NCBI GenBank assembly: GCA_016192685.1
Contig: JACPTS010000003.1
Coordinates: 15,119 to 79,118, forward strand
Direction of reading: 5' to 3'
Length of the DNA stretch: 64,000 nt
DNA from: Candidatus Harrisonbacteria bacterium
GTDB taxonomy: Bacteria > Patescibacteriota > Minisyncoccia > UBA6257 > 02-FULL-45-10c
The notes under the pieces are model-generated. The model did no database searches and was not told the DNA's origin. It saw nothing but the letters and a program-made list of their open reading frames with translations. Both the position numbers and the translations under genes were made by a program. This document shows, piece after piece, positions 6,318-59,051 of the stretch (position 1 is its first letter; every line of letters begins with the position of its first letter).

Positions 6318-6340
6318 CCGCTTGCCAGCGGGGATTTTTT
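6318..6340 (+). terminator. intrinsic terminator (CCGCT-tgcc-AGCGG + T6)
   Basis: GC stem-loop plus a T-run directly after the stop codon. Confidence 0.55.
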
Positions 6341-6346
6341 ATTTTC

Positions 6347-6382
6347 CTTATACCCCTTATTCGTACGAATAAGGGGTATAAG
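6347..6382. repeat. 36-bp perfect palindrome cttaTACCCCTTATTCGTACGAATAAGGGGTAtaag (copy 1 of 2; 32-bp core identical to 9237-9268)
   Basis: Perfect dyad symmetry centred on GTAC. It sits between a terminator and the dCMP deaminase start. The identical 32-bp core recurs upstream of htpX. Confidence 0.8.
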
Positions 6383-9200: not shown

Positions 9201-9228
9201 CCCGCATTATTGCGGGATTTTTGTTTTT
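9201..9228 (+). terminator. intrinsic terminator (CCCGCA-ttat-TGCGGG + T-run)
   Basis: Perfect 6-bp stem plus a T-run. Confidence 0.6.
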
Positions 9229-9236
9229 TATTATAC

Positions 9237-9268
9237 TATACCCCTTATTCGTACGAATAAGGGGTATA
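9237..9268. repeat. 32-bp perfect palindrome TATACCCCTTATTCGTACGAATAAGGGGTATA (copy 2 of 2)
   Basis: Identical to the core at 6349-6380. Again lies just after a terminator and about 52 bp before a start codon (htpX). Both downstream leaders share CAGGATATG. Confidence 0.8.
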
Positions 9269-9320
9269 AGAAGAATTACCTTTTTATTTTTTAAAAAATC
9301 TATTATAATTTAAGCAGGAT

Positions 9321-10229
9321 ATGAATCAATTTCTTTATAAAAATAAAACTTTGAATCTTTTTAAGACCTGGCTGTTATTTGCCGGATTTTTGGGATTTGT
9401 AATAGCGTTTGGTTTTGCTTTTGCCCAGATTTACCAAAATTCCTCTATTCTTTATTTTGCGGTTATTTTGAGCGTTGGAACGGCGCTTTTCAGCTACTGG
9501 TTTTCCGATAAAATGGTACTCGCCATGGTTAAAGCCAAGCCAGTTTCCAAGGATTCCGCGCCGGAACTTTATGATTTGGTTTCGGATTTGGCGAAAGAAG
9601 CGAATTTACCCTTGCCAAAAATTTATATTGTTGAGGAAAATGCTCCAAATGCTTTTGCCACCGGCCGGAATCCGAAACATGCGGTAGTGGCGGTAACCAC
9701 CGGAATATTGCGGAAATTAAATAAAGATGAGCTTAGAGGGGTGCTGGCGCATGAACTTTCTCATGTTGCCAATCGCGATATGCTGGTAGGAACCGTAGCG
9801 GTGATTTTAGTCGGATTTATTTCTATTGCTTCTGATTTTTTTATGCGGTCAATGCTTTGGGGCGGAATGCGAAGAGATAGCCGAAATCAAGGAGGGACGA
9901 ATATTATTTTTCTGATAATTGGAGTGATTTTGGCAATGCTGGCGCCGTTGGCGGCGACTTTAATGCGTCTGGCAATTTCCAGAAAGCGGGAACTTTTAGC
10001 GGATTCTTCCGGAGCTCTTTTGACTCGGAAACCGGAAAATCTGGCGAGCGCTTTAATAAAAATTTCTTCTGATTCAACGCCAATGCTCCGTGCCAATAAT
10101 GCTAATTCCCATCTTTGGTTTGACGACCCGTTTGACAATAAGCCGCGTACTCCGTTTTTGCATAAATTATTCATGAGCCATCCGCCAACAGAGGAAAGAG
10201 TAAAGAACCTGCGCGGGTTAAAAATTTGA
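9321..10229 (+). CDS. htpX: zinc metalloprotease HtpX (M48)
   Basis: HELSHVANRD (HExxH), four TM segments, and C-terminal motifs of HtpX-type M48 proteases. Confidence 0.85.
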   Translation: MNQFLYKNKTLNLFKTWLLFAGFLGFVIAFGFAFAQIYQNSSILYFAVILSVGTALFSYWFSDKMVLAMVKAKPVSKDSAPELYDLVSDLAKEANLPLPKIYIVEENAPNAFATGRNPKHAVVAVTTGILRKLNKDELRGVLAHELSHVANRDMLVGTVAVILVGFISIASDFFMRSMLWGGMRRDSRNQGGTNIIFLIIGVILAMLAPLAATLMRLAISRKRELLADSSGALLTRKPENLASALIKISSDSTPMLRANNANSHLWFDDPFDNKPRTPFLHKLFMSHPPTEERVKNLRGLKI

Positions 10230-10659: not shown

Positions 10660-10748
10660 GGAGGGTTCGCATAGCGGTCTATTGCGCCTGCTTGGAGAGC
10701 AGGTTTCTCCGAAAGGGGATCGTGAGTTCAAATCTCACACCCTCCGCA
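10660..10748 (+). tRNA. tRNA-Ser (anticodon GGA), type II with long variable arm, CA 3' end
   Basis: Hand-folded cloverleaf. Acceptor stem GGAGGGT/ACCCTCC, 3-bp D stem, anticodon stem CCTGC/GCAGG with loop TTGGAGA, a 17-nt variable arm, and T arm GTGAG-TTCAAAT-CTCAC. Confidence 0.85.
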
Positions 10749-10777
10749 GTCAACATTTTTTATCGAGAGACCTATTT

Positions 10778-10936
10778 ATGTCTAATAAAATTGATAAAGA
10801 GAAATACTTTGCTAAATGCACTCGGTGCGGGATTGATACGGATAACCCCCGATTAATTAATCAACGTTGTCGTATGATGTATAAAAATAAAGGGCGATGT
10901 AAAGGATATTATCGCAGTAATTTATTTAAATCATGA
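10778..10936 (+). CDS. small Cys-rich (zinc-ribbon-like) protein, 52 aa
   Basis: CTRCG ... C-x4-C ... C arrangement (KCTRCGIDTDNPRLINQRCRMMYKNKGRC). It is the 3' part of the track ORF 10658-10936, whose 5' part overlaps the tRNA and is not coding. Confidence 0.3.
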   Translation: MSNKIDKEKYFAKCTRCGIDTDNPRLINQRCRMMYKNKGRCKGYYRSNLFKS

Positions 10937-12062: not shown

Positions 12063-12542
12063 ATGGTATCAATAGAAAAGTATACTGAACAAGGGAAAAA
12101 AGAAATTGAAGAGAAGTACGTAAAACTAGAGAAATCTAAAGCATGGTTTGACACAAAATATATTAAAGACGAGGAACAACTAACCCAGGAACAAATTGCC
12201 TATCTTCGTAAATATTCAATAACGATCATCGGATTGTGGCCACTAAACGCTTTGGTGCGAAAACAATGGGATCTGGTTATTATTTTAGTAATTATTTACT
12301 TTCTTCTACCGGCGGGAGTAGCACTTTTGGAGATTTACTCTAGTGTTTACTTGGCTATCGCCTTAACAGTGGTTCCTAGTATATGGTGGTTATATTTTAG
12401 TCTTAAGCACGGAAGAAGGTTGGCGTGGAATCGTAATGAATGGAAGAGCTTTGAATCTTTCGAAAAATCTGAAAGGGTGTGGGCTTTATTTGCGTGGATA
12501 ACAGTAGCGTTTTATGTGTTGCTGGTAGCAATCGGTTATTAA
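12063..12542 (+). CDS. hypothetical membrane protein
   Basis: Charged N-terminal domain followed by TM helices. Confidence 0.4.
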   Translation: MVSIEKYTEQGKKEIEEKYVKLEKSKAWFDTKYIKDEEQLTQEQIAYLRKYSITIIGLWPLNALVRKQWDLVIILVIIYFLLPAGVALLEIYSSVYLAIALTVVPSIWWLYFSLKHGRRLAWNRNEWKSFESFEKSERVWALFAWITVAFYVLLVAIGY

Positions 12543-12772: not shown

Positions 12773-12955
12773 ATGGAAATGGGACTTTCTACGGACCTTG
12801 CAAATGCGGCAAAGAAACTTCGTCGAAACATCGATGCCGGTGTTGAGGTAAAAAGGGCTGTTCGTGTGTTTGCGAAAGACGTGGAAAAAGCTGCCGAAAC
12901 GGTGAAAAAAGCCACTCGTGCATTATTGAACGTCCTACCCCCCAGCGATGATTAA
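12773..12955 (+). CDS. small hypothetical protein (60 aa)
   Basis: RBS GGAGG 8 bp upstream and a terminator at 12975-13003. Confidence 0.35.
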   Translation: MEMGLSTDLANAAKKLRRNIDAGVEVKRAVRVFAKDVEKAAETVKKATRALLNVLPPSDD

Positions 12956-32280: not shown

Positions 32281-33543
32281 ATGGATAAATTCCTGCAATT
32301 ATTTCAAATTCCCGATTTAAAGAAAAAACTGCTGGTTATTCTGGGCTTATTGCTGGTTTTCCGGTTATTTTCCGCTATCCCCATACCAAGCGTGGATACG
32401 GAAAGGCTGGCGGCCTTTTTAAGCCAGAATCAATTGCTGGGATTTTTTAACATTTTTTCCGGCGGGGCTTTATCCAATCTTTCCATAGTAATGCTGGGAG
32501 TCGGGCCTTACATCACGGCTACCATTATTCTCCAGCTTTTAACCATGATTTTCCCGCAGCTGAAAGAAATTTATTACGAACAGGGAGAAATCGGCCGGGC
32601 AAAATTTAACCGCCTGTCTCATTATTTAACCGTTCCGCTGGCGGCTTTGCAATCATACGGATTTTTAAACCTGTTAGTCGCCCAGCAAGTTTTGGTGAAT
32701 TTATCCTTTTTTGATATTTTAAGGAATATCACCTTAGTTACCGCCGGCTCCTTATTTTTAGTCTGGTTAGCTGACTTAATTTCGGAACAAAAGCTGGGTA
32801 ATGGCGTATCGCTTTTAATTTTTGCCGGTATTGTCAGCGGATTGCCGCAAACTATCCAAGGCGTAATCGTAACTTATGAGCCAAGTTTGCTTCCAACTTA
32901 CGCCGCTTTCTTAATTTTGGCCATGATTGTGATTGCCGGAGTAGTATTCATTAACGAGGGCGAGAGAAAAATTCCGGTTTCTTACGCAAAACGAGTCCGC
33001 GGCAACCGAGTTTACGGAGGCGCTTCCAGTTATCTGCCGCTGAAAGTCAATCAAGCCGGAGTAATTCCGATTATTTTTGCCATCTCTCTTCTGCTTTTTC
33101 CGCAATTTTTAGCCCAAATTTCCGGATTTATCTCCGTAGATTTATCCATCCGTTTAACTGAATTAGTCAACAAACTTTTAAATAATCAGCTGATTTACAG
33201 CGCCTTTTATTTCTTTTTAGTAGTTTTATTCACTTATTTTTATACCGCTGTTACTTTTGACCCGCAGGAAATTTCTAAAAATTTGCAGCGGAGCGGCGCT
33301 TTTGTTCCGGGCATTCGGCCCGGCCAGCCGACCGGCGAATTTTTAAACAAAATTATAAATAGAACTACGATTTGGGGAGCTTTATTTTTGGGGACAATCG
33401 CGGTTCTGCCCAATCTTACCCAGATTTTAACCGGTATCCAGCTTTTAAGCCTTGGCGGCACCGCGCTTTTAATCGTGGTTTCCGTGGCAATAGAAATCAT
33501 GCGGCATATTGAATCGCAGTTGGTGCTTCGCGAATACGAGTAG
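32281..33543 (+). CDS. secY: preprotein translocase subunit SecY
   Basis: 420 aa, 10 TM helices, conserved SecY segments. Confidence 0.95.
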   Translation: MDKFLQLFQIPDLKKKLLVILGLLLVFRLFSAIPIPSVDTERLAAFLSQNQLLGFFNIFSGGALSNLSIVMLGVGPYITATIILQLLTMIFPQLKEIYYEQGEIGRAKFNRLSHYLTVPLAALQSYGFLNLLVAQQVLVNLSFFDILRNITLVTAGSLFLVWLADLISEQKLGNGVSLLIFAGIVSGLPQTIQGVIVTYEPSLLPTYAAFLILAMIVIAGVVFINEGERKIPVSYAKRVRGNRVYGGASSYLPLKVNQAGVIPIIFAISLLLFPQFLAQISGFISVDLSIRLTELVNKLLNNQLIYSAFYFFLVVLFTYFYTAVTFDPQEISKNLQRSGAFVPGIRPGQPTGEFLNKIINRTTIWGALFLGTIAVLPNLTQILTGIQLLSLGGTALLIVVSVAIEIMRHIESQLVLREYE

Positions 33544-33565
33544 CCGCTCAACTATTTTTCCAAAA

Positions 33566-33816
33566 CGGTTCGGTATACTTCTATGAGAACCGCGGTTCTC
33601 GCGCTCCAGCGGCGCGAGCCCGCTACGCCTCGCCGCGATTTTTGTTTTGCTTCGCCAAGTCTGACTTGGCTTCGCAAAACAAACCAAGCAAATCGCGGCT
33701 CCGTAGTTTCTCTACGAAGCATACCGAACCATTTTGTTTTGATAAAAATAGCTTCGCTTGGTTGGGAGAATATTTTAAAATTTGTAGTTACCGCACGACA
33801 AATAGGCATAGCTCAC
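33566..33816. repeat. R1-family GC-rich nested-palindrome element, copy 1 (between secY and adk)
   Basis: Outer inverted repeats GGTTCGGTATaCTTCtaTGAG / CTCtaCGAAGcATACCGAACC, inner pair CTACGCCTCGCCGCGATTT / AAATCGCGGCTCCGTAG, and a central hairpin TTTGTTTTGCTTCGCCAAGTC-tga-CTTGGCTTCGCAAAACAAA. The core and the tail CCGCACGACAAATAGGCATAGCTCAC recur at 35412-35558. Confidence 0.7.
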
Positions 33817-33874
33817 TTCACTGGATTTTTAAAATAGATATAGCTCGCTTTTGTTGTGATATAATTCTTTCTAT

Positions 33875-34558
33875 ATGAGAAAGGTAATAATAATCTACGG
33901 GCCGCCGGGAGCCGGCAAGGGGACGCAAGCGAATTTGTTGGCTGGCAAGCTGGGGTTAATCCATTTTGACACCGGAAAATACCTGGAACAGCTGCTGCAC
34001 GATTCCGAACTTCAAAAAAACCCGGAGATTAAAAAAGCAAGAAAAATTTTTGATTCCGGCGCTTTGGTAACGCCAAGTTTTGTTTTAAAAGTTACTTCTA
34101 AAAAAACCAGAGAAATTGCCAAAGCCGGCTGGGGCATAGTTTTTAGCGGTTCGCCTCGGACCCTTTTTGAAGCTTTCGGCGATTCAAAAAATGAGGGTTT
34201 AATTCCAGCTTTTGAAAAATTGTACGGCAAAAAAAATATAGTGCCGATTTTGCTGAAAATAGACCCTAAAATTTCAATTTTGCGGAACGCTCACCGCCTG
34301 GTTTGCTCAGTTTGCGGAACAGCCATTTTATACAGCGATACGGAACATCAGCATAAAACCTGCCCTCTTTGCGGCGGAAAATTATACAAGCGAGTGGTAG
34401 ATAATCCTAAGGTTTTTGGAACAAGAATTAAGGAATATCAGGAACGGACCGCGCCGATTTTAGCCGGACTTAAAAAACGCGGCTATAAAATTACGGAAGT
34501 AGACGGCCGGCCGCTTCCCTACAAAGTTTTTGACTCAATTCTGAAGAAATTAAAATAA
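33875..34558 (+). CDS. adk: adenylate kinase (zinc-binding lid)
   Basis: GPPGAGKGTQ P-loop and a lid CxxC ... CxxC (CSVCG ... CPLCG). Confidence 0.9.
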   Translation: MRKVIIIYGPPGAGKGTQANLLAGKLGLIHFDTGKYLEQLLHDSELQKNPEIKKARKIFDSGALVTPSFVLKVTSKKTREIAKAGWGIVFSGSPRTLFEAFGDSKNEGLIPAFEKLYGKKNIVPILLKIDPKISILRNAHRLVCSVCGTAILYSDTEHQHKTCPLCGGKLYKRVVDNPKVFGTRIKEYQERTAPILAGLKKRGYKITEVDGRPLPYKVFDSILKKLK

Positions 34559-34659
34559 TACGAATTTACAAATTTATGCGAATGCTGCGAAAAATACGAA
34601 TTCGTTGTATTTGTAGATTAGCATTTATTCGTAGATTTGTATTATATTAGCGTAAGCGC
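34556..34659. repeat. R2-family about 104-bp palindromic element, copy A (exactly fills the adk stop to map start gap)
   Basis: About 90% identical to 36547-36651. Contains subterminal inverted repeats AATCTACAAAT / ATTTGTAGATT and a central palindrome TACGAATTCGT. It begins at the upstream TAA and ends at the downstream ATG. Confidence 0.75.
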
Positions 34660-35412
34660 ATGATAAAGACCGAAGACCAAATCAAAATGATTCGGATTGC
34701 CGGCAAAATCCTGGCCAATGTGGCAATCAAAATCAAAGAAGCGGCCAAGGAGGGCGTTTCCTTAAAAGCATTAGACCAGCTGGCTAAACGATTAATTGAA
34801 GAAGCCGGCGCCGAGCCGGCCTTTTTGGGTTATCAGCCGTATGGCGCGGAAAAGCCGTTTCCCGCCTCTATTTGCGCTTCTTTAAATGAAGTGGTGGTGC
34901 ATGGCGTTCCGACTGATTATAAGCTCAAATCCGGCGATTTATTAAAGCTGGATTTTGGAGTCGCTTATCAGGGCTTTATTGCTGACGGCGCTTTCACGGC
35001 AGGCGTTGGTAAAATATCAGAAACCGCTAGCCGGTTAATTGGAGTTACTAAGCATGCCCTTCAAATAGGAATAAAAGAATGCAAACCAAATAAAACTTTA
35101 GGCGATATCGGCTGGGCAATTAATAATTATGTTACTAAACACAGCTTTAAAGTAGTTAAGGGACTTTCCGGCCATGGCGTTGGCCTGGAACTCCACGAAG
35201 ACCCGCCGGTTTTTAATGAAGGGCAAAAAAATACCGGATTAAAATTAAAGCCGGGAATGGTGCTTGCATTGGAACCGATGGTCAGCGCCGGCGACCCGTA
35301 TCTTTTACAGTTGCCAGACGACAGCTACGCCACCCGCGATAAAAGCTTAACTGCCCATTTTGAGCATACAGTGTTGATTACGAAAGGGGAGCCGGAAATA
35401 TTGACTCGGTAG
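34660..35412 (+). CDS. map: methionine aminopeptidase type I
   Basis: 250 aa, pita-bread fold with conserved metal-ligand context. Confidence 0.9.
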   Translation: MIKTEDQIKMIRIAGKILANVAIKIKEAAKEGVSLKALDQLAKRLIEEAGAEPAFLGYQPYGAEKPFPASICASLNEVVVHGVPTDYKLKSGDLLKLDFGVAYQGFIADGAFTAGVGKISETASRLIGVTKHALQIGIKECKPNKTLGDIGWAINNYVTKHSFKVVKGLSGHGVGLELHEDPPVFNEGQKNTGLKLKPGMVLALEPMVSAGDPYLLQLPDDSYATRDKSLTAHFEHTVLITKGEPEILTR

Positions 35413-35558
35413 CTCACTATGCTTATTTGTCTACCGGCACCGGCGTTCGCCGACTCCTGCGGTCGGCGCCGCCTACGCCTCGCCGCGATTTTTCGCTTCG
35501 CAAAACCAAGCAAATCGCGGCTCCGTAGTTGCCGTACGACAAACAAGTATAGTTCGCT
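35412..35558. repeat. R1-family GC-rich element, copy 2 (after map; lacks the central hairpin)
   Basis: Shares CTACGCCTCGCCGCGATTTTT, GCTTCGCAAAACCAAGCAAATCGCGGCTCCGTAGTT and the tail CCGTACGACAAACAAGTATAGTTCGC with copy 1. Its own outer inverted repeats are GCTCACTATGCTTATTTGTC / GACAAACAAGTATAGTTCGC. Confidence 0.7.
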
Positions 35559-35570
35559 TATTTTTGGAAT

Positions 35571-35599
35571 TGATTAGTTTTTGTTTTATTGCTATACTA
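35571..35599 (+). promoter_or_regulatory. promoter (TTGATT, 17-bp spacer, TATACT) for a small membrane protein gene
   Basis: Hexamers and spacing read directly from the sequence. Confidence 0.4.
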
Positions 35600-35629
35600 A
35601 TATCAGTACAAAAATACTCGGGGATAAAA

Positions 35630-35773
35630 ATGACAGCCTGGCTTGCCTGGAAAGGAATATTGGCAATATTCGCATTTGTAAATTTTTATTTTGCCTATAA
35701 ATTTAATGATAGTTGGAGAGTATTTCATATTGGTTCCGGACTATTGTGTGTCTATATTTTATTCTCTTGGTGA
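35630..35773 (+). CDS. small hydrophobic protein (47 aa)
   Basis: Internal ATG of the track ORF 35564-35773. Hydrophobic sequence MTAWLAWKGILAIFAFVNFYFAYKF... with its own promoter and a perfect 18-bp palindromic terminator. Confidence 0.35.
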   Translation: MTAWLAWKGILAIFAFVNFYFAYKFNDSWRVFHIGSGLLCVYILFSW

Positions 35774-35796
35774 GACGCTAATTAGCGTCTTTTTTG
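35773..35796 (+). terminator. intrinsic terminator (AGACGCTAAT|TAGCGTCT + T5)
   Basis: Perfect 18-bp palindrome plus a T-run. Confidence 0.6.
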
Positions 35797-35817
35797 TTAT
35801 ACTAAATAAGTAATATC

Positions 35818-36549
35818 ATGGCCAGACCATTTCTATCAGTAATTATTCCAGCCTATAACGAATCTAAGCGGTTGCCGCTGACGCTTATTGATATTGACAA
35901 GCATTTGGAACAGCAGGAATATTCTTACGAAATTTTAGTTGTGAATGACGGCTCTGCAGACCAAACGGCAGAAATTGTAAATCGTTTTATGCCGCTGATT
36001 GAAAATCTAAAAATTATTGATAATAAAGAAAATAAAGGCAAAGGCGCGGCGGTTCGGCAGGGAATGCTCCTTGCCAAAGGCACTTGGCGGCTTTTTATGG
36101 ACGCGGATAATTCCACTTCCATCGTAGAATTTAATAAAATGATTCCTTATTTTAAAGAAGGGTATGAAGTAGTAATCGGCTCTCGTGATGTAAGGGGCGC
36201 CCGGATGCTTCCGCCGCAGGCGTTTTATAAACGCTGGCTGGGTGATATTGGCAATTTATTCATTCAAGCCCTGTTATTGCCCGGAATCTGGGATACCCAG
36301 TGTGGCTTTAAATGTTTTTCCGATGAGGCGGCGGAACGGATATTTCATCTGACAAAAATTGACCGCTGGGGCTTTGACGCCGAAGCATTGGCATTAGCTA
36401 AAGCATTAAACTATCAAATAAAAGAAATGCCGGTATTTTGGGTAAACGATCCCAGAACTCATGTATCCTGGAAAACTTATTTGCAAGTTCTCTGGGAAAC
36501 TGTTAAAGTGCGATGGTGGCTTTGGCAAAATGCCTACGGTATTAAATAA
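35818..36549 (+). CDS. GT2-family glycosyltransferase (polyprenol-phosphate glycosyltransferase-like)
   Basis: LSVIIPAYNES ... VVNDGSAD ... DAD motifs of GT-A fold GT2 enzymes. 243 aa. Confidence 0.7.
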   Translation: MARPFLSVIIPAYNESKRLPLTLIDIDKHLEQQEYSYEILVVNDGSADQTAEIVNRFMPLIENLKIIDNKENKGKGAAVRQGMLLAKGTWRLFMDADNSTSIVEFNKMIPYFKEGYEVVIGSRDVRGARMLPPQAFYKRWLGDIGNLFIQALLLPGIWDTQCGFKCFSDEAAERIFHLTKIDRWGFDAEALALAKALNYQIKEMPVFWVNDPRTHVSWKTYLQVLWETVKVRWWLWQNAYGIK

Positions 36550-36651
36550 TACGAATCTACAAATTTATGCGAATGCTACGGAAAATACGAATTCGTTGTA
36601 TTTGTAGATTAGCATTTATTCGTTGATTAGTATTACACCGAGCGTAAGCGT
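36547..36651. repeat. R2-family about 104-bp palindromic element, copy B (fills the GT2 stop to greA start gap)
   Basis: See copy A. Again spans exactly from the TAA to the next ATG. Confidence 0.75.
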
Positions 36652-37110
36652 ATGGACAAACAATATCTCACTAAAGAACGTTTAGAAGAATTAAAAACAG
36701 AACTCGCGGATTTAAAAGTCCGGCGGCGAATTGAAGTTGGAGAAAGGTTAAAAAAAGCCAAAGAACTCGGCGACCTTTCGGAAAATTCCGAATATTTTGA
36801 GGCCAGGGAAGAACAGGCGCAGGTGGAAACCCGGATTGGCGAATTGGAAGATATGATTAAAAATTCGGAAATTATTGAAAAAACTCGGGCCGGAGCGACA
36901 GTCTCCATCGGCGCCACTATTCAAGCGGAAAAAGACGGCCAACGGAGAAAATTTACGATTGTCGGCTCTAATGAGGCTAAACCGGAAGAGGGCCTGATTT
37001 CCAATGAATCGCCGTTAGGAAGAGCTTTTTTGGGTAAAAAAGCCGGCGATAAAGTGCAGGTCAAAACTCCCGGCGGAATAGCGGAATATCTGGTGATTTC
37101 AATCGAATAA
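36652..37110 (+). CDS. greA: transcription elongation factor GreA
   Basis: 152 aa. N-terminal coiled coil with acidic tip (DLSENSEY) and C-terminal FKBP-like domain. Confidence 0.9.
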   Translation: MDKQYLTKERLEELKTELADLKVRRRIEVGERLKKAKELGDLSENSEYFEAREEQAQVETRIGELEDMIKNSEIIEKTRAGATVSIGATIQAEKDGQRRKFTIVGSNEAKPEEGLISNESPLGRAFLGKKAGDKVQVKTPGGIAEYLVISIE

Positions 37111-56342: not shown

Positions 56343-57765
56343 TAAATTAATCAAATTAATAAGTCCTATAAGTCCTATAGGACCTATTCGGGTCAGAATC
56401 GCGCCATCGCCGACCGGCTATTTGCATATTGGGACGGCCCGAACCGCTCTTTTTAACTGGCTTTTTGCCAAAAAACACGGCGGCAAATTTATTTTAAGAA
56501 TAGAAGACACTGACCTGGAAAGATCCGATAAAAAATACGAAAAAGACATTATAGATGGCTTGAGGTGGCTGGGATTGGATTGGGATGAAGGACCCCATCG
56601 GCAATCGGAACGATTAGCCATTTATGAAAAATATCTTCAAAACCTCCTAAGCGAAAACCAGGCTTACTATTGCGCCTGCACCAAGGAAACTTTGGAAAAA
56701 GAGCGGCAGCTTCAAATAAAGAAAGGGGAGGCGCCAAAATACAGCGGCAGATGCCGAAATTTTAAAATTGCTCCGGAACAGGGAGAAATTATCCGTTTTA
56801 AAATTCCGCCGGCGGAGAAAATCCAATTTCTGGATTTGATTCGCGGCCCGATTATTTTTGACAGCAGCTTAATCGGGGATTTGGCTATCGCCAAAAACTT
56901 ACAAACCCCTCTTTATAACTTCGCGGTTGTTATTGACGATTACGAAATGAAAATCAGCCACGTAATCCGCGGCGAAGACCACATTGCCAATACGCCCAAA
57001 CAGATTTTGCTCCAGCGAGCCCTAAACTTTCCGGAGCCAAAATACGCCCATCTGCCGCTGATTTTAGACCCGGACCGGAGCAAAATGTCCAAACGCTATT
57101 CGGCTACTTCCATCCAAGAATATAAAGAGCGAGGTTATTTGCCGGAAACTTTAGTAAATTTTATTGCTTTGCTTGGCTGGCATCCGGCCGATGACCAGGA
57201 AAAAATGGCGGCGTCGGAAATTATCCGAAAATTCAGCCTGGAAAGAATCCAAAAGGCCGGGGCGGTTTTTGACATCCAAAAACTCAACTGGCTGAACAGC
57301 CAATATTTAAAGGAAAAATCCGAATCCGAACTGTGGCAAAAAATAAAAGAGCTTTACGATAAAAAAATCAGTATTCAAAACGAGGCGGCTCTAAAATTAT
57401 TAAAAATAGGAAAATTGAGAATGTCAAAACTGGAAGATTTTCTTTCTTTGCAGGAATCTTTAACCTTACCGGATTATGACAGCAATTTATTATCTTGGAA
57501 AAATACTCATAAAGAAACAACTAAAGAAGCCTTGCGGCTGGCGCAAGAAGTAACCAGAACCATTCTCGTCCACGAATTTAATCAAAAAAATCTGGAAAAC
57601 CAACTTATGCCCCTAGCGGACAACCAAGGAAGGGGAGAGTTCCTGTGGCCTCTGCGAGTAGCCTTATCCGGAAAAGATAAATCACCCGGGCCATTTGAGC
57701 TGATGGAAGTATTGGGAAAAGAAGAATCGTTAAGAAGAATAAATATTGCTATTGAAAAATTATAA
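56335..57765 (+). CDS. gltX: glutamyl-tRNA synthetase
   Basis: RIAPSPTGYLHIG (HIGH) and KMSKR. The first about 17 codons are encoded by the tandem TAAGTCCTA repeat array, so the start is uncertain. Confidence 0.88.
   Translation: MFSKLIKLISPISPIGPIRVRIAPSPTGYLHIGTARTALFNWLFAKKHGGKFILRIEDTDLERSDKKYEKDIIDGLRWLGLDWDEGPHRQSERLAIYEKYLQNLLSENQAYYCACTKETLEKERQLQIKKGEAPKYSGRCRNFKIAPEQGEIIRFKIPPAEKIQFLDLIRGPIIFDSSLIGDLAIAKNLQTPLYNFAVVIDDYEMKISHVIRGEDHIANTPKQILLQRALNFPEPKYAHLPLILDPDRSKMSKRYSATSIQEYKERGYLPETLVNFIALLGWHPADDQEKMAASEIIRKFSLERIQKAGAVFDIQKLNWLNSQYLKEKSESELWQKIKELYDKKISIQNEAALKLLKIGKLRMSKLEDFLSLQESLTLPDYDSNLLSWKNTHKETTKEALRLAQEVTRTILVHEFNQKNLENQLMPLADNQGRGEFLWPLRVALSGKDKSPGPFELMEVLGKEESLRRINIAIEKL
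56360..56387. repeat. tandem 9-bp array TAAGTCCTA-TAAGTCCTA-TAGGACCTA containing the palindrome GTCCTATAGGAC (56372-56383)
   Basis: Perfect 12-bp palindrome within a 3-unit tandem repeat at the gltX 5' end. Confidence 0.7.
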
Positions 57766-57773
57766 ACTAAATT

Positions 57774-59051
57774 ATGAATAATAAGTCCTATAGGACCTAT
57801 AGAGCTTATAAGTCTTATGGGGCCTATCTAATAGCGTTTTTTCTTCTTCCGCTTTTTTCACTGGCGGCGGAAATTCCTCAAAATCTTAAAAACACTATTC
57901 AAGAAAAAACCCAGGCCCTGCAGGAAATAAACCAAAAAATCCTTCAAACCGAAAAAGAGCTGGAAGAAACCGAAGGCAAAAGCCTGACTTTGCAAAAAGA
58001 AATTAAGCAAAAAGAGCGGCAGCTAAGCCAATTAAACCTCAACATCAAAGCCGGTGAAATTACTATTGAGAGATTAAACCTGGAAATTGAATCTCTAAAA
58101 TACGATGTTACGGAAACCCGAACTAAAATCAGCGCCCAAAAAAACGGCATTGCTCAAATTTTAAAATCCATCCAACGGAGAGACAGCGAAAATACTCTGA
58201 CGGTTTTACTTAAAAATAGCAGTCTGGCGGAAAGCCTGGCCGAATTAGAAAATCTTTTAAATTTAAATGTCGGCCTTAGTGCCGGCGTCAATAAACTTAG
58301 TTTTCTTGATAAAAATTTATCCGACCAGCTTGGTTTAACTGCCAAAAAACAAACTGGGGTTATTTCAGAAAATAAAAATTTAAAAAACCGGCAATTAATC
58401 GCCGGTTCGGAAAAAAATGAACGCCAAAATCTGCTTACTCGGACTAAAAACCAAGAAAAATTGTATGCCGACCAACTAAAAGAGCTGAAAAAACTTCAGG
58501 CGGAAGTATCGGCGGAAGTGGAAAAAATAGAAGCCGAGCTGCGTTTAAAAATAGACCCGGCTCTTTTGCCAATTCCAAGGCCCGGCGTGCTTTCTTGGCC
58601 GATAACTATGAAAAATCAGGGCGGAACCGGCCGTTTAACCCAAAAATGGGGAATTCCTTCGCCGCTTTATGGAGGAAGAGCGCACAATGGCATAGACATC
58701 GGAGCTCCCATTGGAACGCCAATTTTTGCCGCGGGAAAAGGCAGGGTGGCGGAAGTCTGGAATCAAGACCGGTATTGCTATAAAGGCGCTTACGGCAAAT
58801 TTATCATTATTGAACATGAAAATAATCTCACTACTTTATATGCCCATTTATCTCTTCAGTCGGTAAAAAAAGGCGATTATGTGAACCAAGGAGACTTAAT
58901 CGGCTATGTCGGCCAAACCGGCTATGCTACCGGCCCGCATCTCCATTTCACCGTCTACGCAAGCCAAACTTTTATTCTCAAATCCAGCAAAGTCAATTGC
59001 GGCCCGATTATGCCATTTGGCGGCGATTTAGATCCGCTCCAGTACTTATAG
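57774..59051 (+). CDS. M23-family peptidase with N-terminal coiled coil (EnvC/LytM-like)
   Basis: HNGIDIGAPIGTPIFAAGKGRV and HLHF M23 motifs. Signal peptide after a repeat-encoded N-terminus. Confidence 0.8.
   Translation: MNNKSYRTYRAYKSYGAYLIAFFLLPLFSLAAEIPQNLKNTIQEKTQALQEINQKILQTEKELEETEGKSLTLQKEIKQKERQLSQLNLNIKAGEITIERLNLEIESLKYDVTETRTKISAQKNGIAQILKSIQRRDSENTLTVLLKNSSLAESLAELENLLNLNVGLSAGVNKLSFLDKNLSDQLGLTAKKQTGVISENKNLKNRQLIAGSEKNERQNLLTRTKNQEKLYADQLKELKKLQAEVSAEVEKIEAELRLKIDPALLPIPRPGVLSWPITMKNQGGTGRLTQKWGIPSPLYGGRAHNGIDIGAPIGTPIFAAGKGRVAEVWNQDRYCYKGAYGKFIIIEHENNLTTLYAHLSLQSVKKGDYVNQGDLIGYVGQTGYATGPHLHFTVYASQTFILKSSKVNCGPIMPFGGDLDPLQYL
57782..57828. repeat. TAAGTCCTA-type array containing GTCCTATAGGAC (57785-57796) at the 5' end of the M23 peptidase gene
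   Basis: ATAAGTCCTATAGGACCTATAGAGCTTATAAGTCTTATGGGGCCTAT, with the same units as at gltX, rpsH and rplD. Confidence 0.7.

Follow-up and report, generated by a model that had tools for sequence, protein, structure and literature searches.

R1, a strand-constrained repeat family beside secY, adk and map in a Candidatus Harrisonbacteria genome that may spread as a folded single strand

The small, compact genomes of the Candidate Phyla Radiation (CPR, Patescibacteria) are regarded as holding little mobile DNA and few known non-coding RNAs. We analysed a 64,000-nucleotide (nt) stretch of a Candidatus Harrisonbacteria genome (assembly GCA_016192685.1, contig JACPTS010000003.1, positions 15,119 to 79,118 of the forward strand) which contains two copies of a GC-rich element, R1, one behind secY and one behind map. 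This whole stretch is referred to as the window, and coordinates are those of the window unless another contig is named. R1 is a real, previously undescribed and structurally constrained repeat family: its members, ~175-240 nt in length, are non-coding and occur in a narrow clade of groundwater Parcubacteria (Harrisonbacteria-like). Our leading explanation, held with middling confidence, is that R1 is a low-copy, non-autonomous mobile element that spreads via a folded single strand. Mobility is argued for because R1 is present or absent among close relatives, at scattered and unrelated sites and in both orientations, and because two subfamilies lie within 2 kb of each other, one copy is chimeric and a truncated copy sits beside a full one. 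That the single strand needs to be folded, and is recognised at one of its hairpins (hairpin B below), is suggested by the invariance of that hairpin, by stems in which pairing alone is kept and by a constraint acting on one strand.

Both copies were found where an earlier, sequence-only reading of this DNA had placed them. The 21-nt left half of their core, CTACGCCTCGCCGCGATTTTT, occurs exactly twice in the window (positions 33623 and 35473; expected 0.00), as does AAATCGCGGCTCCGTAGTT, which starts within the 28-nt right half (33690 and 35512; expected 0.03), and the 21 + 28 nt core is identical in the two copies. GC content is 0.54-0.61 across 33550-33699 and 35400-35549, against 0.408 over the whole 64 kb, and the two elements have a GC of 51-60% versus 41% for the genome. 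No third copy was found in the 64-kb window by blastn. Copy 1, a full element of the “GAGAA” subfamily, spans 33552-33751 and begins 8 nt past the secY stop codon; copy 2, a full element of the “CCGGCA” subfamily, spans 35405-35577. Both are recorded on the minus strand (covariance model scores of 155 and 166 bits, respectively), since this strand folds better and carries G-U pairs. The outer limits of copy 2 were set by homology with the copy on metagenomic contig L132, the ends of which are marked by a flanking repeat; on this basis copy 2 probably extends to about 35405-35577 and includes the last codon and TAG stop of map.

Behind copy 1 lies a truncated second R1 (33783-33817, minus strand), which belongs to the other subfamily and consists, in plus orientation, of the 3’ end alone (GTAGTTACCGCACGACAAATAGGCATAGCTCACT). 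It matches the 3’ end of the copy on contig L128 at 30 of 32 positions with a 2-nt indel (score 25, the window 99th percentile being 12). The shared core claimed by the sequence-only reading holds for its two halves, common to both copies; its third motif (33795-33811) is part of this truncated element. A possible second remnant of an R1 3’ end, AAAATAGATATAGCTCGCT (33831-33849, minus strand), scores 11-13, at the background 99th percentile, and is only suggestive. It sits just upstream of a promoter-like sequence of adk, a perfect extended -10 box (TGTGATATAAT, 33857-33877) located immediately downstream of the R1 remnants and 10 nt before the adk start, from which the adk mRNA would be leaderless or nearly so.

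R1 adopts a three-way junction (a Y shape), in which an outer stem, P1, and a short stem, P1b, carry two hairpins, A and B, side by side. Copies 1 and 2 fold alike, with z scores of -6.0 to -7.7 against dinucleotide shuffles on either strand. In copy 1, P1 pairs 33552-33581 with 33715-33751 and P1b pairs 33582-33589 with 33707-33714, while hairpins A and B occupy 33590-33622 and 33623-33706, respectively. In copy 2, the equivalent pairings are 35417-35431 with 35537-35552 (P1) and 35432-35439 with 35529-35536 (P1b), hairpin A being at 35441-35472 (loop TCCTGCG, 35455-35461) and hairpin B at 35473-35528; the element is flanked by the motifs TAGCTCAC (35410-35417) and TAGTTCGCT (35550-35558), the latter followed by a T-rich tail (35559-35577). 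Nested inverted repeats had been proposed for these elements. The strong fold is there, but three concentric palindromes are not, as the outer stem carries two adjacent hairpins; the extra hairpin ascribed to copy 1 is real and corresponds to the elongated tip of hairpin B (33641-33683). Hairpin A has a GC-rich stem and a TCCNGYG loop, and is unrelated in sequence to hairpin B. The latter comprises, in order, CTACG, an internal loop CCTC/TC, GCCGCGATTT, a variable tip hairpin, a one-sided bulge CCAAGC, AAATCGCGGC and CGTAG. The two halves of the core map to hairpin B on the minus strand, at 33623-33643 and 33681-33708 in copy 1 (the right half, AAACCAAGCAAATCGCGGCTCCGTAGTT, containing the conserved CCAAGC bulge) and at 35473-35493 and 35503-35530 in copy 2.

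A collection of 241 million metagenome records was then scanned by exact match with a 19-mer of the right core. Eight contigs were retrieved, six of which contain full R1 elements (L125, L126, L128, L129, L131 and L132); the other two are chance matches inside a gene of an unrelated organism. A core search had been proposed as a way to find further copies, and these six members bring the family to at least eight, window copies included. The member contigs have a GC of 41-45%, the tetranucleotide composition of the two longest correlates with that of the window at 0.94-0.95, and each of these carriers has one copy per 10-13 kb contig. Apart from R1, the eight loci share no sequence with each other.

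Conservation of the structure, also proposed by the sequence-only reading, is evident in the alignment of the eight copies. Compensatory changes were observed in 30 of 52 pairs on the plus strand and 32 of 53 on the minus strand (RNAalifold). Paired cells amount to 95-97%, compared with 31-52% after sliding the partner by 1-3 columns, and all five covariation measures exceeded those of 500 out of 500 column shuffles. P1, hairpin A and the tip of hairpin B change in sequence between copies while pairing is kept; the P1 arms can be wholly different (e.g. CTATGCTTATTTGTC, CTTGTCTTGTTGTT and CAAAACGGTTCGGTAT) and still be complementary. The lower part of hairpin B (CTACG-CCTC-GCCGCGATTT ... CCAAGC-AAATCGCGGC-TC-CGTAG) is by contrast invariant in sequence, and its 13 pairs never vary. 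Invariance of the right half is partly forced by selection, since it served as search bait; the left half, which was not selected for, is identical in seven of the eight copies, with one substitution in L131. P1b defines the two subfamilies, with TATGAGAA/TTTCTCTA in copy 1 and L126, and TACCGGCA/TTGCCGYA in copy 2, L128, L129, L131 and L132. L125 is chimeric, joining the 5’ half of one subfamily to the 3’ half of the other; its outer stem is degenerate and a different short hairpin replaces hairpin A.

We then asked which strand is under constraint. In the variable helices, mismatches that are A-C on the plus strand are G-U on the minus strand in 16 cases versus 2 in the opposite sense, the invariant loop-closing T-G pair being set aside. 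P1 pairing is 97.9% on the minus strand versus 88.5% on the plus strand. The minus strand folds better by 4.7-17.8 kcal/mol in all eight copies, a count that is not independent across copies given that the shared core contributes each time, and DNA parameters give the same ranking (-45.7 versus -40.7 kcal/mol). The internal loops of the minus strand are purine-rich (GA opposite GAGG). Because wobble pairs, purine-rich internal loops and folding energies all favour the minus strand, the constrained molecule is a single strand of the window’s minus polarity, either RNA or DNA.

A direct repeat, (T)AGYTCRCT on the plus strand, brackets most copies; on the minus strand it forms 3 bp and a tandem GA/GA mismatch which extend P1. 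As a general intergenic signal or target this motif was rejected, since in the window it is found only at R1 and at two chance matches in coding regions, and it appears better explained as a helix extension containing the GA/GA mismatch. On contig L137, which lacks R1, the secY-adk spacer (L137 8413-8536) contains three GYTCGCT motifs, each followed by AT-rich sequence, and TAACTAGCTGCTTGCTTTGG lies right after map in the map-GT2 spacer (L137 9970-9998). These motifs resemble the 3’ flank of R1 and could be footprints or preferred target sites.

The genomic setting is that of the S10-spc-secY-adk-map operon, among the most conserved in bacteria. In the window, the S10-spc ribosomal-protein operon ends with secY (32281-33543), followed by adk (33875-34558), map (34660-35412), an open reading frame (ORF) for a 47-residue membrane protein (35630-35773), a GT2 glycosyltransferase gene (35818-36549), greA (36652-37110) and lysS. 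Among named homologues, the best matches to Adk come from Candidatus Harrisonbacteria (Parcubacteria/Patescibacteria). Relatives were identified via Adk, yielding nine contigs from six relatives with adk 75-93% identical: L133-L136 are four contigs of a single 93% relative, L137 is at 81%, L138 (GCA_016214655.1) at 75% and L139-L141 at 77-78%. The longer contigs retain secY-adk-map-(small ORF)-GT2-greA-lysS and the shorter ones the part that they cover. Yet R1 was detected in none of L133-L141, either by motif search or with the covariance model. In the relatives, 1-80 nt separate adk from map where the two do not overlap, 18-124 nt separate secY from adk, and map is followed by GT2 after 20-29 nt in contigs lacking the small ORF (L133, L137, L141). 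The window Map ends in ...ILTR-TAG and that of all relatives in ...ILTK-TAA. The CGG-TAG at the end of the window map is homologous to the end of the L132 copy, and R1 thus appears to supply the last codon and stop of map. Judged from this comparison of gene orders, R1 is a recent insertion and no feature of the operon. Logan assemblies with an identical secY or adk all break within R1 or within R2, a second repeat described below; such breaks fit repeats, palindromes or strain polymorphism without discriminating between them.

The small ORF between map and GT2 encodes 47-50 hydrophobic residues (window 35630-35773, L138 11506-11658, L140 2460-2609), has its own promoter-like and terminator-like sites and is absent in L133, L137 and L141. 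No Pfam match was found for it.

R1 copies lie only in intergenic DNA or at extreme 3’ gene ends, in either orientation, beside unrelated genes. Elsewhere than in the window, the neighbours are dnaE, ftsH, an S1-domain gene, pilB, ruvB, clpB, rpsP and an NTP-transferase gene, and none recurs. An association with adk-map or with operon junctions, as had been suggested, therefore does not stand: the relatives keep the gene order without R1, and other copies lie beside dnaE, ftsH, pilB/ruvB, clpB, rpsP and the NTP-transferase gene. The strand of minus polarity reads in the direction of a neighbouring upstream gene in L125, L126 and L132 and in that of the downstream rpsP in L128; the genes on either side of R1 in L129 and L131 converge on it, and the two window copies run antisense to the operon. 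In L131 the stop codon of dnaE, and in L129 that of the NTP-transferase gene, falls within the first bases of R1. In L125, L129, L131 and L132, a terminator-like hairpin is present on the same strand 20-30 nt before P1, and a 15-19 nt A-rich R1 leader abuts the terminator T-run. In L132, the 3’ half of this terminator recurs beyond the element, identical over 15 nt, or over ~22 nt if one gap and one mismatch are allowed, a match that none of 300 shuffles equalled. The other seven copies have no significant flanking repeat, local alignments being no better than those of shuffles; a 13/16 match flanking copy 2 was dropped as a target-site duplication, as it was equalled by shuffles.

Further searches delimit the family. 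No R1 was found in viral contigs or in phage and plasmid records, where only chance GC-rich BLAST matches of 35-40 nt (phage, plasmid) were seen. A covariance model and fuzzy-motif search over about 197 kb and 1.07 Mb identified no diverged or extra R1 in relatives. A genome-contig scan with the palindromic 10+10-mer GCCGCGATTT..AAATCGCGGC yielded no R1 among at least 118 stretches; the matches listed are REP-like families (Chloroflexota, Nitrospinota, proteobacteria) and chance matches. As far as these collections show, the R1 family is confined to a few groundwater Parcubacteria. At Rfam gathering thresholds, only two tRNAs pass in the window and R1 is matched by no family, be it a ribozyme, a group II intron domain, 6S, SRP or Y RNA; at E values up to 10 over 33400-36800, the sole match to R1 is a spurious miRNA model (29.5 bits for a gathering score of 100). 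R1 was also compared by eye with hammerhead ribozymes, group II domain V and attC, all of which were rejected as there is no CUGAUGA/GAAA core and no resemblance. Literature searches on the R1 sequences and on CPR repeats or structured RNAs gave no description of R1.

The 10+10-mer scan brought up many-copy REP-like hairpin repeats with a GTAG head, built on GTAGCCGCGATTTC...GAAATCGCGGCTAC, in metagenome-assembled genomes of Chloroflexota and Nitrospinota. Carriers include Thermoflexia G79 (L005, L020, L022, L027, L040 and others), Anaerolineales (L013, L025, L036) and Nitrospinota K_2_bin.39 (L008, L016, L024 and others). With R1 these repeats have no more than 10-13 nt in common, and we make no claim of homology.

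The second repeat, R2, follows adk and GT2 (34553-34660 and 36544-36651), so that the order is R1-adk-R2-map-R1-orf-GT2-R2-greA, as the sequence-only reading had it. Its view that the alternation is striking finds no backing: two R1 and two R2 placed at four junctions would alternate strictly one time in three by chance, so the pattern carries no weight, and the two R1 are of different subfamilies. The 93% relative has R2 at both junctions, in one case 96% identical and in the same orientation, in the other inverted; more distant relatives lack R2. Since R2 is common to the 93% relative and R1 is not, R2 predates R1 in this lineage. The alternation is, to go by these distributions, a by-product of independent insertions.

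R2 is built of inverted TACGAAT/TGCGAAT/TACAAAT units. In the 93% relative, the secY-adk spacer contains a gene for a 135-residue PDDEXK_3 protein (PF13366, GxxExxY-type), bracketed by ~35-nt inverted ends of four TACGAAA units. The same relative has R2 at GT2-greA (96%), an inverted R2 at adk-map (88%) and more TACGAA units at greA-lysS; these PDDEXK_3 and R2 features are at L133 positions 9536-9997, 10683-10785, 12282-12392 and 12854-12927. From its sequence, R2 looks like a gene-less derivative of a mobile PDDEXK_3 element. Its end (34618-34645 and the equivalent in the second R2) has a promoter-like TTAGCA-16-TATTAT, and a conserved AGCGTAAGCG(C/T)ATG runs into the map and greA start codons; R2 may supply promoters to the genes it precedes. 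Two more repeats were noted in the window. A 47-nt repeat, 87% identical between 6336-6382 and 9224-9270, contains the near-perfect palindrome TATACCCCTTATTCGTACGAATAAGGGGTATA as well as a TTCGTACGAA centre; it could be a terminator common to both sites or a further family of small repeats, to judge from its appearance. Eleven TAAGTCCTATAGGACCTAT-like motifs with a 9-nt periodicity are often found at gene junctions (1670-1709, 23110, 23977, 30004, 49330, 56348-56387 and 57770-57827).

How might R1 move? In the mechanism we favour, R1 would spread via a single-stranded intermediate (single-stranded DNA, possibly RNA) that is required to fold into the Y, and the invariant hairpin would be recognised by an enzyme whose gene lies at another place in the genome or on a different replicon. 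Insertions would survive at sites of low harm, just after stop codons or at the T-run of an intrinsic terminator. In the window, the R1 copies and R2 would have broken up what was once a tight secY-adk-map-GT2-greA operon, leaving spaced units, and the secY and map messages would each have gained at the 3’ end a highly stable R1 fold (-67 to -98 kcal/mol), a side effect and not the purpose of R1. On the comparative evidence, regulation of adk and map by R1 is the lesser candidate; R1 is most likely either a mobile element or a mobile non-coding RNA gene. A role as cis-regulatory leader or riboswitch was rejected, the neighbours being varied and found in both orientations.

Several observations weigh against a mobile element. 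There is no transposase in the window, and no transposase or recombinase beside any other R1 copy. No R1 copy is seen bracketing an ORF, no consistent target-site duplication was found, and sequence-conserved terminal inverted repeats were not found across the eight copies. Empty and filled alleles of one site in near-identical strains were not obtained. Copy number is low for a mobile repeat, with 2 copies per 64 kb here and 0 in ~75 kb of relatives, and 241 million metagenome records gave only 6 true 19-mer matches. The invariant 49-nt core, the purine-rich internal loops and the one-strand G-U tolerance are also typical of functional RNA, and two of the supporting observations, the invariance of the right core and the energy asymmetry, are partly an effect of the bait and of the shared core, as stated above.

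The most serious competitor, one that we consider unlikely but far from negligible, holds that each genome has a few copies of a structured non-coding RNA, the R1 minus strand, whose invariant hairpin binds a protein while its variable stems form a scaffold, and whose gene has been duplicated or moved among intergenic sites. Strong covariation alongside an invariant, partly unpaired core is what such an RNA would display, and the G-U pairs, tandem GA/GA and GA/GAGG internal loop found on the minus strand only, the GC of 51-60% in a 41% GC genome, the low copy number and the co-directionality of the minus strand with an adjacent gene at six of the eight loci (upstream in L125, L126 and L132, downstream in L128) all speak for it. 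However, the minus strand has no conserved promoter upstream and no terminator downstream, the host terminator directly upstream at four loci would stop read-through, and both window copies are antisense to an essential operon. Moreover, close relatives are without R1, which is therefore dispensable; no Rfam family corresponds to it; and truncated and chimeric copies fit selfish DNA better. A multi-copy structured RNA fits the same data about half as well as a mobile element.

The remaining alternatives fare worse. One could view the plus strand as a host-recruited module at mRNA 3’ ends, which blocks 3’ exonucleases or partly terminates transcription and insulates neighbours, like E. coli REP. 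The position of copy 1 8 nt past the secY stop and of copy 2 directly (0 nt) past the map stop (L129 and L131 also abut stops), the very stable fold, the T-rich tail after several copies and the new promoter-like sites after both window copies agree with this, but the pairing constraint is on the opposite strand, the T-run is at least 8 nt past the stem, four copies are antisense to flanking genes and relatives manage without R1. As an intrinsic terminator, which has a T-run within 0-2 nt of its GC-rich stem, R1 was rejected, since the T-run of the plus strand starts too far from P1 and the minus strand has none behind the stem, and a terminator scan does not call it. We regard such a module as quite improbable, a stabilising or terminating role on the sense strand being possible as a side effect. 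Very improbable indeed is a double-stranded DNA binding site (operator, partition or recombination site) with GCCGCGATTT and AAATCGCGGC as half-sites: it would account for an invariant inverted repeat within otherwise variable sequence, but leaves unexplained why three other helices show compensatory changes and why wobble pairs favour one strand, its half-sites would be separated by 20-48 nt of variable hairpin, and no gene is associated. A small conserved protein encoded by copy 1 or copy 2 is next to inconceivable. ORFs of 52-85 residues do span the elements on both strands, yet the frame between core halves is not conserved (their spacing is 0, 1, 2, 2, 1, 1, 0 and 0 mod 3 over the eight copies), which refutes this reading; none of the six frames stays open in all copies, and a search of 5.8 billion proteins with the 52-residue ORF through copy 2 gave no homologue. 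The ORFs are spurious, as was first supposed. With further copies found, a conserved structure and no coding function in copy 1, R1 holds as an element family.

We next compared R1 with known systems. The logic of a folded, non-autonomous single strand is also that of repetitive extragenic palindromic (REP) sequences and REPINs (moved by RAYT, an IS200-like Y1 transposase). Like R1, these are short elements outside genes that are rich in GC and form hairpins, and their movement is thought to be strand-specific and to involve a folded single strand (PMC3116915). New REPIN copies insert into or beside old ones, forming clusters, and the distribution of R1, with a truncated element next to a full copy, is reminiscent of these (PMC3116915). 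R1 differs in being a three-way junction of two unrelated hairpins, whereas a REPIN is a doublet of inverted REPs. In addition, REP units have a GTAG or GTGG as a 5’ head. The sole GTAG of R1 belongs to the CTACG/CGTAG helix on which hairpin B stands, of which it forms the 3’ strand, and it is 3’ of the hairpin whichever strand is read. REP sequences number tens to hundreds per genome and R1 probably a few (2 in 64 kb here, 1 per 10-13 kb contig elsewhere), and no RAYT/Y1 transposase was found in the window or beside the other R1 copies.

Palindrome-associated transposable elements (PATEs) are gene-less IS200/IS605 derivatives that make no target-site duplication and have no sequence-conserved terminal inverted repeats; they depend on subterminal hairpins read on one strand and insert beside a short motif. 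R1 is similarly strand-specific, without target duplication and without conserved terminal inverted repeats. However, the ends of IS200/IS605 elements carry two similar hairpins that are bound by TnpA and do not pair together, while the ends of R1 pair over 14-30 bp and its two internal hairpins differ. Neither tnpA nor tnpB was found near R1 in the DNA searched. Classical, DDE transposase-dependent miniature inverted-repeat transposable elements (MITEs) that fold into long RNA hairpins, such as Correia/NEMIS, ERIC, RUP and Rickettsia palindromic elements, are comparable in being 100-250 bp long and intergenic, sometimes overlapping gene ends; they are strain-polymorphic, co-transcribed and able to alter mRNA stability. 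Presence or absence at orthologous sites, as in MITEs, is seen for R1, absent from the same junctions in L133-L141. But MITEs keep conserved terminal inverted repeats and fixed target duplications (e.g. TA), and R1 has neither.

With integron attC sites, R1 has in common that structure is conserved over sequence, that a single folded strand would be the substrate, that unpaired bases mark the strand and that the variable terminal structure can be branched. It lacks the RYYYAAC / GTTRRRY core sites, however, its ends, (T)AGCTCRC and TAGYTCGCT, are in direct and not inverse orientation, the flanked housekeeping genes (adk-map) are fixed in all relatives, and no integrase is present. Class C group II introns are mobile elements that target terminators, and in four R1 copies the element likewise starts where the T-run of an intrinsic terminator of the host lies on the same strand. 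R1 is far too small for an intron, though, Rfam shows no group II or other ribozyme signature in it, and the window copies are not beside terminators. In this analysis, R1 fails the defining tests of REP/RAYT and attC, and probably those of IS200/IS605, despite sharing with all three the logic of a folded single strand. To our knowledge, no described repeat family combines a sequence-invariant hairpin, fully covarying stems and a pairing constraint on one strand.

R1 might thus represent an undescribed class of CPR element, either a mobile structured RNA gene or a hairpin-guided single-stranded DNA transposon, though we think this unlikely. If the RNA version is true, the molecule would be a minus-strand transcript with an invariant hairpin and GA-rich loops that acts with a protein; if the transposon version is true, it would home to terminator T-runs and gene 3’ ends with no transposase of a known family nearby. 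Either would be a new selfish or functional nucleic acid in organisms thought to be poor in mobile elements. R1 is therefore a testable candidate for a new single-strand transposition system or a new RNA, and its covariance model is directly usable for scanning complete CPR genomes. Even an operon as conserved as this one is being remodelled by insertions, with R1 apparently giving map its last codon and stop and adjoining new promoter-like sequences.

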